A stretch of DNA of 18,637 nucleotides from the IMG/VR virus record IMGVR_UViG_2869947659_000010, one strand, 5' to 3'. Below are positions 15,001 through 18,637 of the stretch, piece by piece; the stretch's first letter is position 1; each line of letters begins with the position of its first letter. The stretch is from a virus. Its lineage: Duplodnaviria; Heunggongvirae; Uroviricota; Caudoviricetes. A program made the position numbers.

Positions 15001-18000
15001 TACGCTGAATGATTTTCTCGGTGCCATGACTGAGGATGATGCCCGTCCGGAGGCACTGCGTCGCTTTGAACTGATGGTGGAAGAGGTGGTGCGTAACGCA
15101 GAGGAGGCGAAGAAGAATGCCGGAGAGGCGGAGACGTCAGCGAGGAATGCCGGCATATCAGCCAGTCAGGCAGAAGAGAGCGCTGCAAATGCTGACACTT
15201 CAGCAGGGGATGCATCGGAGTCAGCCCGGCAGGCGGCAGAAAGTGCAGCCTCAGCAAAGCAGTCAGAGGAGGCGTCCTCGTCCTCGGCCTCTGCGGCCGC
15301 TCAAAAAGCCAGTGAGTCATTACAAAGTGCAACAGATGCTGAGTTGTCAAAAAAGACGGCAGAAAGTGCAGCCGGTAATGCAGTCAGGGATGCAACGACC
15401 GCAACAGAAAAAGCCCGGGAGTCAGCAGAAAGCGCACAGTCAGCGGAACAAAGCAGGATAGCGGCGGAAGAGGCCGTAAACCGAATCCCCACCGTGGTGG
15501 GACCTCCCGGGCCAAAGGGGGAACCGGGGCCCGAGGGTCCTCAGGGGCCGAAGGGAGATAAAGGAGAGCGTGGCGACACCGGCCCGGCAGGGGCAACCGG
15601 TGAACGGGGGCCGGCAGGTGATGCTGGTCCGGCAGGCCCGCAGGGGCCAAAAGGTGACAAAGGCGATCCGGGAGTGGCTGGACCAGCAGGTCCGGCAGGT
15701 GCGCCGGGGCCGAAAGGCGATAAAGGTGATCCGGGAGTAGCAGGTCCAGCAGGTCCGGCGGGGCCACAGGGACCGAAGGGAGACACAGGAGCCCCCGGGC
15801 AAGGAACAGAACTGCTTACTACTGCCAATACATGGACTCAGGCACAAACTTTTAATGGTGGTATTAATGGCAATTTGACGGTGACCGGAAACGGCTCATT
15901 TAACGATATTCAGATCCGTTCGGATAAACGCAACAAGCGAAATCTGGTAAAACTGGATAATGCGTTAGATCGTCTGGAGGCACTTACTGGTTATCTTTAC
16001 GAGATACAGTACTCTGCCGACGGTTGGCAAACGTCGGTTGGTTTAATTGCTCAGGATGCACAAAAAGCATTGCCTGAACTGGTAACTGAAGACGCAGACG
16101 TTATATCTGGTGAAAAACGTCTGCGTCTTAACTACAACGGCATAATTGCATTGTTAGTCGAGGGCTTTAAAACACTTCGTCATGAGATTAGAGAACTCCG
16201 GGAGAAGTAAACGACAGCTGTTGTAGTTTCTGGTTTCTACTGAATTTAAATTGTGGGGTGACACTCACCCCACGCATTCAGAAGGGGGAGATGAGATGGG
16301 GGTAACATCGGGATGGGTAGGCTCTTCGGCTAAGAGCGAAACAGGTGAGCAGTGGATGGGAGCCGCCGGAACCAAACTGGGACTGAGTAAACCTTTTATG
16401 ATGAGCCAAATGGTTGGGCGAACTATGGGCTGTAAAATTGCAACTGAGTACTATAAATGGAAATCCTCTGACAAGGTTGATAACTGGGGCGCAGTTGGCG
16501 CTGACTGGCCTTTAGAAGAAAAAAGTAAAGGTACAATTACAAACGCCGCAAGCTGCGGATCAGGGAGGCTGGTAGGGGCTGTCGTTACACTTTCTCACTT
16601 TTTGACGAACTCTACACCGACAGCTGCTGTTTATTTAGCCGGTGGTAAAGCAGGTAACATCACCGTAAACGTAGGTGGTGCTACACAAACCATGATTTAT
16701 CAGGGCGTTGTTAGTGGGTTCCAGTATTACTGGTCAGGTTCTGTTAGTTCCGCTTTCGTGGAGGCAATGAAAAAGACGGGAGTACCCCAGGATCTAAAAA
16801 TTAGTTAAATGGTAAATAAATAATTTTAAAAACTTCACGTTCTACATACCGGAGACGCCGGATATATAGGATATTGTTTTAAGTTGCCAGAGAAATTTTT
16901 CCGGACGGATGCTGATAATAATGATGTGCCAATGACGGCAGCATCATGGATGGCACTGAGTGAAGCGACAGAGCAGGCGATGTTTGCGAAGGGAGTGGAG
17001 ATTAATACACGGCAGTTGCAGATGAAAGCCGAGGTTGAGGCGCTGACAGACCTGAAGGCGATCCGCAGTTATGTTGTCGGATCGCCTGCTGGCTGAATAA
17101 AAAAACGGGACCACGACCAGTCCCGGAACCATGAGTTTTAGGGTATTAGTTTGTTATCATAGTTAGCGTGCTAAGTATGCCATGTCAGGTTGATTAGTGA
17201 AGTGATGTTGTTCGCATTTTTGCACGGCGGAGAATATTCAGATTTTTGGAAATCCATATTTTTCCCGTGCGCGATTACATGCTTCATTTACGATGCTATT
17301 TTCGCCGGACATTGCGAATTCCCTGCATGTGGACGGTTTTTGTAAACAGAGCAATATGCGTTTTCTCCGGGGGGGGCCGGCAAGAGCGCCACATCGGGGA
17401 TTTTTCTGATTGGTGCCGCGCATACAGCGATGAAAAGGAGATATTTGCTCAGTGAGACTGACCGAAACCTTTCCGCCAGCATCGTCAGCTTCTGCCCAGT
17501 AAAAAGAGACGCGGAAAATGCACAACAGGCACCACACGTCATGCATGGATTCAGATTGCTCATAATTCACCAGTACAGCTATAAATCGTAAAGAGAACAG
17601 CGGTACATCGTATGTAAGAACGTACCGCGGCTGGCTGGTGAACTTCCGATAGTGCGAGTATTGAATGATTTCCAGCCGTTACAGATTTTACGTGCTAATT
17701 AGTGAACAAACCACTCGTCAGCAGACTCCCAGGTATCTTTCAGAGTTTCCTGAACAAAAGTTTTAGCTGAATCTTTATCGGCGGTGCGCGTAACAGAAAG
17801 GCCATCGTTGCTGGTAGCTTTTACGATCACCTCTACATCGTCATAACGTTTACTGATGCGTCGGGTTAATTCTTCCTTTAACGCATCCACAGCACCGGTT
17901 GGCATTTTAGTCATTTTTTCTTTGGCTATGCAGATTTCAATACGCATAAAAGTCCCTCTACACTGTGTTTGTATACAGTATCATTTTTAACTGTATGGAT

Positions 18001-18637
18001 AAACAGTATTAAGGGTGAAGGAAAGTGATTTTTTGGGGCATGCATGGGGCAAAAATATTTGTTGTGGGGCATTTTGGGGCATGATTGGGACACTTTGTTA
18101 CATATGAACTTTGCCGATTTTTATATGACATGGAAATACAATGCTTTGATTCTTCTAAATAAAAAACATGCTCTTGGGCGTTCTTTAGTGATTTTTAAAA
18201 ATTCCGTATCACGCAGTTAAAGTGGCGGGCATACTCTTCAAGGCTGGTGATCCCCAACCGCACCCATTTAGGATGCGACCATTGCGGTAGACCGATGTAA
18301 ATCATAACGCGTGAAGGATCTCTTCCACGCTACGCACACGGGCGATGCGCGGGTAGATATGATTAATGCTGTTATTGTGTTGCTCGGCGCTGGCGGCACT
18401 ACAGGCGTCTTCGGCAATCACCAGATTAAAGCCAAGTTCCCAGGCATTGCGGGCGGTGGATTCAACACCGATATTGGTCGAGATCCCACATAACACTATT
18501 GTATCGATACCTCGGCGGCGCAGTTGCAACTCCAGATCCGTACCGTAAAACGCACCCCACTGACGTTTGATGATTTCGATATCACTGTCAGTTGCACCTA
18601 ATGCAGCTGGATGTTGCCACCAGTTTTCGGGCAACAC

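Follow-up and report, generated by a model that had tools for sequence, protein, structure and literature searches.

A lambda-like prophage with a DinI-family gene behind two predicted LexA operators at its right end

Does the small DinI-like gene near one end of this prophage form an SOS-controlled unit of its own, and where does the transcript of that unit end? The window, by which we mean the whole 18,637-nucleotide stretch of the IMG/VR record IMGVR_UViG_2869947659_000010, had been read as carrying a DinI-like gene behind two tandem LexA boxes, which might tune prophage induction and which shares strand and terminator with a frameshifted CxxCxxCC gene. The gene occupies the right end of a lambda-like prophage, where the flanking host genes yecE and yecD mark the right prophage junction.

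17699..17947, minus strand: dinI-like coding sequence, ATG start, 82 aa plus stop
18034..18092, unstranded: four copies of TGGGGCA and one of TGGGACA, flanked by the dinI promoter on one side and the prophage/yecE junction on the other
18195..18305, minus strand: truncated start of yecE (host flank), from the O104:H4 annotation
18302..18637, minus strand: yecD (host flank), Pfam Isochorismatase

The prophage of O104:H4 is likewise integrated in yecE, with 98% identity. The TGGGGCA-type repeats are conserved in VT1-Sakai and phi80, and the TGGGGCA/TGGGACA array likely represents arm-type sites of the integrase.

Assignment of the open reading frame to DinI, as originally predicted, is upheld by Pfam, PHROG, and direct comparison with the Escherichia coli K-12 protein. 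The 82-aa product matches the Pfam DinI family (PF06183) with an E value of 1.1e-19 (70.9 bits, cutoff 24.2) and covers that profile in full (positions 1 to 63 of 63); a second match, to PHROG 189 ("RecA filament binding protein DinI"), has an E value of 5.7e-31. BLASTP aligns it end to end with K-12 DinI at 46% identity (residues 1-81 against 1-79), and a phmmer comparison with PDB entries 1GHH/7YWA gave an E value of 4e-13. K-12 DinI (b1061; PDB 1GHH, 7YWA) resembles it in length (∼80 aa), single-domain architecture, Pfam family, and RecA-contact residues. The published contact positions of DinI are a hydrophobic pocket (L13, L21, W71, W77, and F78) and an acidic patch (E24, E69, and D76) (PMC9926225). 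Their counterparts in the BLASTP alignment are M15, L23, W73, W79, and F80 and E26, D71, and E78, so that five of the eight positions are identical and three carry conservative changes. The NCBIfam equivalog for chromosomal DinI (NF007893) scored the product at 73 bits, below its 111-bit cutoff, which indicates a DinI-like paralog rather than the chromosomal orthologue. Judged from these profile and alignment scores, the protein is a DinI-family member that has diverged from the chromosomal dinI.

The gene has been seen before. An identical protein (100%) is encoded by the phages mEp460 (gp21, annotated "RecA filament binding protein DinI"), SKA5, and PhiR55_1, and the same gene is found as H0001 of VT1-Sakai (AP000400; protein 95% identical, both box positions shared) and as ECs_2939 in Sp15. 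Homologue diversity was drawn from a phage collection and IMG/VR, since a contig scan with the single protein gave four near-identical loci. The locus thus holds an ordinary, previously annotated phage copy of the RecA-binding DinI, and the observation is real but not new. DinL of phi80 and the MsgA-type DinI-family genes of Salmonella and Citrobacter phages are also cargo lying close to the att site or the tail fibre genes.

The retained RecA-contact residues are what favors a main role in competition or protection and not in the tuning of the phage that carries the gene: occupancy of RecA filaments would dampen SOS-dependent events in the lysogen. The events in question could be induction of a co-resident CI-type prophage, UmuD processing, or killing by quinolones. 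A comparative-genomics preprint also counts a prophage DinI-like gene among the acquired genes that it links with later quinolone resistance (10.1101/2023.06.20.545734). However, the argument is purely inferential, and the ST95 association, a statistical one only, implicates drug-susceptible strains; we regard such a main role as conceivable but rather unlikely. It is compatible with the explanation that we prefer, an SOS-inducible cargo gene, because it concerns benefit and not mechanism.

Much less probable is a place for the module in the prophage induction switch, as a LexA-controlled antirepressor comparable to Gifsy dinI-gftA or Tum of coliphage 186, with the phage repressor inactivated by the DinI-like protein or by a hidden neighbor. 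DinI-family sequences are indeed linked to LexA-controlled antirepressors in Gifsy, 186, Fels-2, and PSP3 (PMC3121763), and the geometry of PHROG 189, in which the DinI part occupies positions 71-149 of a 151-position profile, fits Tum-like fusions in the family. Tum belongs to the LexA-controlled phage proteins containing DinI-like sequence (PMC3121763), as is predicted of the product studied here, but it is 146 aa long with DinI-like sequence in its second half, whereas the window protein is just 82 aa, has no N-terminal extension, and consists of the DinI domain alone. In addition, only the ykgJ pseudogene lies downstream of dinI and no candidate antirepressor open reading frame was found there, while antirepressor activity in Gifsy and PSP3 resides in the partner gene and not in the DinI part (PMC3121763). 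The Gifsy-type operon, dinI-antirepressor (gftA/gfoA)-irsA, is located in the nin region behind a single box, belongs to another DinI clade (37 to 46% identity), and continues into a small antirepressor gene (PMC3121763); the window dinI, in contrast, is att proximal and lies behind two boxes, with nothing but a structured element and a dead ykgJ after it. For LexA control of such a dinI gene, Gifsy-2 offers an experimental precedent: induction by mitomycin C was lost when the region with the LexA box ahead of the dinI homologue was replaced, and tagged DinI accumulated upon mitomycin C treatment (PMC3121763). That the paralog would tune prophage induction is a weaker proposal; in the Salmonella Gifsy prophages, the one genetic test that the literature search found, non-polar deletions of the dinI homologues had no significant effect on induction (PMC3121763).

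Evidence that the cargo gene would answer to LexA comes from the 65 bp upstream of its start codon, where both boxes were found as predicted.

17953..17959, minus strand: Shine-Dalgarno AGAGGGA, 5 nt before the ATG, read from the sequence and conserved in relatives
17961..17980, unstranded: proximal LexA box, TACTGTATACAAACACAGTG on the coding strand, HI-like score 6.06 (approximate), covering the putative transcription start
17984..17989, minus strand: putative -10 hexamer TAAAAA, read from the sequence; AAAAAT with an 18-nt spacer is an alternative
17989..18008, unstranded: distal LexA box, TACTGTTTATCCATACAGTT, HI-like score 4.53 (approximate), occupying the whole 17-nt spacer and reaching into both hexamers
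18007..18012, minus strand: putative -35 hexamer TTAATA, from alignments with relatives

The two 20-mers occupy positions -33 to -14 (proximal) and -61 to -42 (distal) relative to the ATG, and their cores (17963-17978 and 17991-18006) are the only exact CTGT-N8-ACAG matches in the 18.6-kb window. Scoring, the check proposed with the original prediction, used a heterology-index-like (HI-like) matrix for which 27 E. coli LexA boxes served as the training set; the matrix, and with it every value, is approximate. The training boxes range from 2.3 to 12.2 (recA, 5.2; dinI, 5.4; lexA-1, 6.6), and with 6.06 and 4.53 on this approximate scale both boxes fall within that range and score like genuine LexA operators, far ahead of the best other site in the window (12.2). 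The putative promoter, TTAATA-17-TAAAAA, overlaps both boxes. These data support two consensus-grade predicted LexA operators overlapping the putative dinI promoter.

Could the boxes be chance palindromes or relics, with the gene outside LexA control? At an expected count of 0.29 for CTGT-N8-ACAG in the window, at least two matches arose in 7 of 200 window shuffles, and in the VT1-Sakai/BP-4795 subclade both boxes are degraded (HI-like 8.5 to 10.5). But chance would have had to place both within the putative 48-bp promoter directly upstream of a gene whose family members elsewhere have LexA boxes, and to leave the next best site in the window far weaker. Moreover, of the 35 distinct related units, 26 retain both boxes, each with an HI-like score of 7.2 or better, although the flanking DNA, upstream DNA included, differs completely. 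We consider a chance origin extremely improbable.

The same comparison identifies the two-box layout, as predicted from sequence, as the norm for this clade. One strong box at -39 to -15 is what precedes K-12 dinI, the nin-region homologues, and the homologues in Aeromonas, Klebsiella, and Salmonella phages. K-12 dinI, which is LexA regulated, is alike in having a box just upstream of the ATG; it differs in having one operator and not two, in being chromosomal rather than prophage-borne, and in its 3′ region. The VT1-Sakai record already annotates a "LexA protein, putative SOS box," a promoter, and a ykgJ-like neighbor, and its SOS box is the homologue of the proximal box here; the Sakai-type alleles carry degraded boxes, whereas the window allele carries two near-consensus ones. 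What the comparison adds is that the spacer of this clade's annotated "-35/-10 promoter" is itself a second, near-consensus predicted LexA operator, and repression should therefore be tighter than at the chromosomal dinI. Whether LexA would bind the two sites cooperatively is uncertain, as their centers are 28 bp apart, a non-integral number of helical turns. A LexA-controlled DinI paralog in lambdoid and Stx-type prophages has accordingly been in GenBank annotation since VT1-Sakai and is consistent with the Gifsy work; the second operator in the promoter spacer is one of the two refinements made here, and the other places the most likely end of the transcription unit at a conserved structured element rather than at the distal terminator.

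Most relatives have TTGACA at -35 of the dinI promoter and the O104:H4 prophage has TTAACA, while the window has the weaker TTAATA (two transitions), and a generic promoter scan of the window did not call the dinI promoter. Identical hexamers carry a promoter annotation in mEp460 and VT1-Sakai.

Downstream of the gene, the original prediction placed a terminator shared with the CxxCxxCC gene, and this side of the locus contains two candidate transcript ends.

about 17582..17692 (roughly 105 nt), minus strand: conserved 3′ element, directly after the dinI stop codon
17685-17690, minus strand: TAAAAT motif of the element
17633-17638 with 17672-17677, minus strand: hairpin 1 (GGCUGG/CCAGCC), enclosing a 33-nt conserved loop
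17600-17628, minus strand: hairpin 2, dG -14.2 kcal/mol, followed by the tail UGUUCUCUUU
17238..17570, minus strand: pseudogene of the ykgJ (CxxCxxCC) family, three indels relative to an intact 109-aa homologue
17096..17125, unstranded: terminator-like stem-loop CGGGACTGGTCGTGGTCCCG, with its T-run on the minus strand

The predicted co-orientation is confirmed: ykgJ lies on the minus strand, disrupted by a -1 deletion in a T-run (17515-17518), a +1 insertion in a homopolymer (G8 at 17369-17376), and a -4 deletion near 17338. Its fragments gave no Pfam match, and relatives carry RefSeq frameshift flags. The stem-loop at 17096..17125 likewise exists, between the pseudogene and a convergent gene of the tail-fibre region (plus strand, ending at 17096). 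That dinI uses it is doubtful, given the conserved hairpin with a U-rich tail that follows dinI about 70 to 100 nt past the stop codon.

This hairpin belongs to the conserved two-hairpin element. The fold of the 3′ element has a z score of -2.6, and across the alignment 92.8% of cells are paired, seven pairs have changed on both sides, and none of 500 shuffles did as well. The loop core of hairpin 1, CATTCAATACTCGCACTATCG, is nearly invariant, and hairpin 2 combines base-pair covariation with its U-rich tail. The U-tract is imperfect in the window (UGUUCUCUUU) but clear-cut in mEp460 (UUUUCUUUUU). In relatives that have no ykgJ, the homologous hairpin has a canonical U-run and homology stops there; in ykgJ-linked copies the U-tract is weaker than in copies without ykgJ. 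A generic terminator scan of the window missed hairpin 2 because its loop exceeds 8 nt. Wobble pairs (29 G.U against 28 A.C cells) were uninformative about the strand of the element.

The weaker U-tract of ykgJ-linked copies is one reason to consider a single LexA-controlled operon of dinI and the ykgJ-like gene, which would end at the terminator-like hairpin at 17106..17125 (minus strand). The genes are co-oriented and 135 nt apart, their pairing recurs across many prophages, and the VT1-Sakai record names a "putative promoter of H0001 and H0002 genes." Against this, the conserved hairpin and its U-rich tail separate the two genes, the module stops at the hairpin, without ykgJ, in mEp460, phi80, and many IMG/VR contigs, and the ykgJ copy here is a pseudogene with three indels. 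K-12, moreover, retains ykgJ beside a decayed dinI without LexA boxes, so ykgJ is independent of the SOS promoter. A single operon is therefore possible but not favored. The intervening hairpin, together with homology that ends there in relatives lacking ykgJ, points instead to a dinI message that is probably monocistronic for the most part; at best, some transcripts would read through into the pseudogene.

Taken as a whole, the locus very probably represents an SOS-inducible unit complete in itself, a cargo gene ("moron") that a lambdoid prophage in yecE carries at its attR end. In the repressed state, LexA dimers would sit on both operators, the distal one between the -35 and -10 hexamers and the proximal one across the transcription start, and would keep RNA polymerase from the sigma-70 promoter TTAATA-17-TAAAAA. 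DNA damage would give rise to RecA filaments, LexA self-cleavage, and opening of the dinI promoter. The DinI-like product would then, in the manner of E. coli DinI, insert into the groove of RecA-ssDNA filaments through its hydrophobic pocket and acidic patch. As residue conservation suggests, it would thereby stabilize the filaments and become a competitor of other proteins that bind in the groove, among them UmuD, LexA, and CI-type repressors. Transcription would mostly end at the conserved hairpin, and read-through would enter the dead ykgJ. Several observations run against the model: the weaker TTAATA hexamer, a promoter left uncalled by the scan, an approximate matrix behind the box scores, and the imperfect U-tract. 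The one-operon annotation of VT1-Sakai and the Gifsy dinI-homologue deletions without an induction phenotype count on the same side. Prophage-encoded DinI proteins may have roles in RecA-dependent induction of co-resident prophages, SOS mutagenesis, or quinolone survival, and any such role, if demonstrated, would be relevant to Stx-phage biology.

The 3′ element is most likely the terminator of the module or the 3′ end of the dinI transcript. Its distribution is wide. About 85% of complete E. coli genomes carry it, and it follows unrelated DinI-family genes as well. On its own, it occurs in the ea31-ea47 spacer of phage lambda, downstream of integrase genes, and ahead of ykgJ in the core genome of E. 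coli. In phi80, dinL resembles the window gene: its annotation includes a predicted LexA site, it shares the GCCCCA repeats on its upstream side, and the two-hairpin element lies 3′ of it. The DinL protein is only ∼29% identical, and phi80 has a single box. A further function beyond termination, as a conserved RNA or a protein-binding site, may be entertained as a tentative proposal of low probability.

Comparison with catalogued RNAs returned little. No Rfam family reached its gathering score anywhere in the window, and when thresholds were relaxed, the only match on the element's sense strand, to L19_leader (16.7 bits; E value, 2.4), was at chance level. On the opposite strand there is a weak partial match to CssrB, at 23 bits where the gathering score is 76, and the CssrB and IS009 matches in related loci are located elsewhere or on the other strand. 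A full-text literature search for the loop sequence found no match. Among known small RNAs of EHEC prophages, AgvB/AsxR and the Pas RNAs lie in other prophage regions, and EcOnc22 is 6 kb away. EcOnc47 was also set aside: this Hfq peak, at the 3′ end of dinI in Sp15, is reported on the opposite strand, and its coordinates may differ between genome versions. A sponge for OmrA/OmrB, an idea that arose from partial complementarity judged by eye, was rejected as well; calculated with the real K-12 sequences, the duplex energies were not unusual, being equaled or bettered in fractions of 0.26 and 0.08 of the shuffles (uncorrected).

There is a precedent for functional RNA at the 3′ end of dinI in DinR of Klebsiella, where, much as is proposed here, a LexA-controlled dinI mRNA carries a structured 3′ RNA ending at a terminator (PMC10907235). 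The analogy did not extend to the target: duplexes of the element or its loop with the E. coli ftsZ leader (-70 to +30) were weaker than the mean of 1,000 shuffled targets, so that pairing is not above chance, and DinR is described as Klebsiella specific (PMC10907235). The conserved 3′ element is nonetheless the sole part of the locus that could lead somewhere new. If it acts as an RNA regulator, for example as an SOS-induced 3′ untranslated region small RNA or as a determinant of mRNA stability, such a regulator would be widespread and, to date, uncurated.

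The window is the right end of a lambda-like prophage, and the last stretch of tail genes is followed there by the dinI-like module and by host DNA:

14744..16210, plus strand, collagen-repeat tail fibre, in the last stretch of tail genes
16251..16808, plus strand, Gp38-like adhesin
16884..17096, plus strand, DUF4376 fragment
17238..17570, minus strand, ykgJ-family (CxxCxxCC) pseudogene, ykgJ'
about 17582..17692, minus strand, two-hairpin 3' element
17699..17947, minus strand, dinI-like gene
17961..17980, proximal LexA box
17989..18008, distal LexA box
18195..18305, minus strand, truncated host yecE (5' part)
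18302..18637, minus strand, host yecD

The nearest public match is the yecE prophage of E. coli O104:H4 (98.1% identity, 92% of the 1.1-kb query covered), whose neighbours in the RefSeq annotation are identical in kind to those of the window.

The DinI-like open reading frame of the original prediction was confirmed. Its 82-aa product matches Pfam DinI (E 1.1e-19), PHROG 189 ("RecA filament binding protein DinI") and solved E. coli DinI (1GHH and 7YWA; E 4e-13), and aligns over its full length with K-12 DinI at 46% identity. Since its score falls under the NCBIfam equivalog cutoff (73 versus 111 bits), "DinI-like paralog" is the correct label. The protein is 100% identical in phages mEp460, SKA5, and PhiR55_1. 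Cryo-EM of RecA-DinI identified contact residues L13, L21, W71, W77, and F78 and E24, E69, and D76 (PMC9926225). In the alignment with K-12 DinI, the window protein carries M15, L23, W73, W79, and F80 and E26, D71, and E78 at these positions, five of them identical and three conservatively changed. From this retention of the contact residues we infer, on good grounds, that the protein would bind RecA filaments.

The motif CTGT-N8-ACAG occurs only twice in the 18.6-kb window, at the two boxes upstream of this gene, which agrees with the predicted tandem pair of good LexA sites. On a heterology-type matrix reconstructed from 27 E. coli LexA boxes, whose values are approximate and in which lower is better, the distal box (4.5) and the proximal box (6.1) are comparable to those of recA (5.2) and dinI (5.4); no other LexA-like site in the window scores better than 12.2. 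Both boxes are real and strong as predicted operators. The coding (minus) strand reads, in order, TTAATA, a 17-nt spacer, TAAAAA(T), the proximal box, AGAGGGA, 5 nt, and ATG. The distal 20-mer spans the promoter spacer and overlaps both hexamers, which places the distal operator within the promoter and the proximal operator over the expected start site. The sole local peculiarity of the promoter is its weakened -35 hexamer (18007..18012), TTAATA; nearly all relatives have TTGACA at this place, and O104:H4 has TTAACA. One of the two -35 transitions (C to T) also brings the distal LexA box nearer consensus, from CACTGT to TACTGT.

The two-operator arrangement is already known and, judging from related sequences, standard for the clade. 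Among the matches listed, 35 distinct intact-gene units from IMG/VR and other loci were compared; both boxes are kept at a score of ≤7.2 in 26, both have decayed to 8.5-9.6 in the 6 units of the Sakai type, and the other 3 are recombinants with another 5' end lacking a box. The VT1-Sakai record, in which H0001 is DinI and H0002 is YkgJ-like, labels the equivalent of the proximal box "putative SOS box" and that of the distal-box region "putative promoter of H0001 and H0002." The mEp460 record annotates a promoter, TTGACA-N17-TAAAAA, at the equivalent place, and the phi80 record a predicted LexA site ahead of the DinI-family gene dinL. In contrast to the two boxes of the window, K-12 dinI has a single box, as does each of the nin-region homologues (mEp237, SEN34, FSL SP-016, and PHB10) and the Aeromonas phage and Klebsiella P18-100 homologues. 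The window gene is an already annotated, widespread prophage DinI paralog under predicted LexA control, and is of an ordinary kind.

Experimental support for function comes by analogy. When PBAD replaced the LexA-box region at a Gifsy dinI homologue, induction by mitomycin C was lost, and tagged DinI built up on induction; induction required the downstream antirepressor, and dinI deletions were without significant effect (PMC3121763). Where Gifsy has that antirepressor downstream of dinI, the window has the dead ykgJ' instead. A search for an antirepressor candidate at the window locus found none, the protein being a bare DinI domain and the sole downstream open reading frame a dead gene, which favors reading the window gene as simple cargo, coding for an SOS-induced modulator of RecA filaments. 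SOS induction would then yield the DinI-like protein, which would modulate the RecA filament and may benefit the phage or the lysogen. In the literature the gene is listed solely among cargo or fitness genes.

Conservation over the 135 nt from the dinI stop to the ykgJ' ATG exceeds that of the coding sequence, and these 135 nt fold as two hairpins (z -2.6). In a covariation test on 40 aligned copies, 92.8% of cells were paired, against 23-57% with slid partners; 7 of 16 pairs had changes on both sides, and no shuffle out of 500 matched the scores of the real alignment. The U-run after hairpin 2 is clear in copies without ykgJ, such as that of mEp460 (UUUUCUUUUU); hairpin 2 of the window (dG -14.2 kcal/mol) has a weaker one, UGUUCUCUUU. 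The most economical reading is that the 3' element would be the intrinsic terminator of the module plus a conserved upstream hairpin, and dinI would on that reading be mainly monocistronic. The original prediction, which had the gene share a terminator at 17097..17125 with ykgJ', would need correcting on this point; read-through to the hairpin there (17106..17125) is possible but would be secondary.

The predicted frameshift in the CxxCxxCC gene is upheld. Against the intact 109-aa YkgJ adjoining the dinI-like gene of strain A24, ykgJ' has lost 1 nt in a T-run and another 4 nt elsewhere, and has gained 1 nt in a homopolymer; RefSeq flags ykgJ of relatives as frameshifted. The homopolymer with the gain is G8 (17369..17376; on the coding strand, C8) and is six long in the close relative cM8a, which could reflect slippage or an assembly error. 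By eye, the ykgJ' start region (17555..17600, minus strand; GUACUGGUGAAUUAUGAGCAAU) looks complementary to the RyhB core.

An exact 22-mer from the hairpin-1 loop is found in at least 120 IMG/VR contigs. Among the matches listed, an intact dinI-like gene lies upstream in 35 of 87 distinct 620-nt units. In the remaining units its place is taken by a dinI remnant that is frameshifted or truncated, by the C-terminus of an integrase some 110 nt away, or by unrelated DNA; sequence similarity stops just past hairpin 2. Complete E. coli genomes carry the element in 4634 of 5426 cases (85%; median, two copies). It is also present in the ea31-ea47 spacer of phage lambda, and in phi80, Salmonella FSL SP-016, and Citrobacter Chris1 it comes after MsgA-type genes of the DinI family. 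Between phi80 and the window, the element is 75% identical, whereas the DinL protein is 29% identical. It occurs independently of dinI, with a nearly invariant hairpin-1 loop, a covarying hairpin 2, and a U-rich tail. In the ecpE-ykgJ spacer of K-12 MG1655 (L150 2684..2995), a decayed dinI-like 3' half precedes the element (94% identity) and then ykgJ, with no LexA boxes left in the spacer. At its "host" ykgJ locus, K-12 retains a fossil of the same prophage module. A ribosome-profiling study includes ykgJ in its table of RyhB-repressed genes, flagged predicted/validated (PMC4666370).

The nature of the 3' element is the modest remaining question of the locus. Its hairpin-1 loop region is almost unchanged across the alignment, which suggests a role beyond termination. 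The element matched no Rfam family, its wobble pairs gave no strand signal, and searches found neither pairing with ftsZ or OmrA/B nor a paper on it. EcOnc47, a published peak of Hfq crosslinking (Tree et al. 2014, Table S2, marked in the "Rho Term" column), maps to Sakai 2896476..2896522 (L144 877..923, minus strand), antisense to the final 60 nt of Sp15 dinI, an opposite-strand placement that may reflect coordinate drift between genome versions. Its equivalent in the window is about 17711..17757 (plus strand), where RefSeq calls a 31-aa hypothetical open reading frame in relatives. Rfam CssrB (230 bits) and IS009 (92-205 bits) have matches downstream of the dinI module in related loci:

L006 3868..4047, opposite strand, CssrB/IS009 match
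L007 (A24 prophage) 1908..2108, opposite strand, CssrB/IS009 match
L005 4693..4891, opposite strand, CssrB/IS009 match

In the window itself, the only such match is to CssrB and is weak and partial (23 bits, E 0.03), at 17577..17629 (plus strand).

Past the dinI promoter and before the yecE junction, TGGGGCA occurs four times and TGGGACA once within 59 nt (18034..18092), and neither recurs in the window. VT1-Sakai, which is integrated in yehV, and phi80 have the same repeats, whose likely role is as arm-type sites for integrase binding. The phi80 genome (L145 1..300) carries a yecE N-terminal fragment, then window-type junction sequence, GCCCCA repeats, and a LexA-box promoter; this suggests that an ancestor acquired host DNA while excising from yecE. 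In mEp460 (L019 2247..3344) and the A24 prophage at dusA (L007 342..1439), the dinI-like gene is immediately preceded by a co-oriented integrase gene, at the place where the window has its att junction instead, so that one dinI module is joined to different integration modules.
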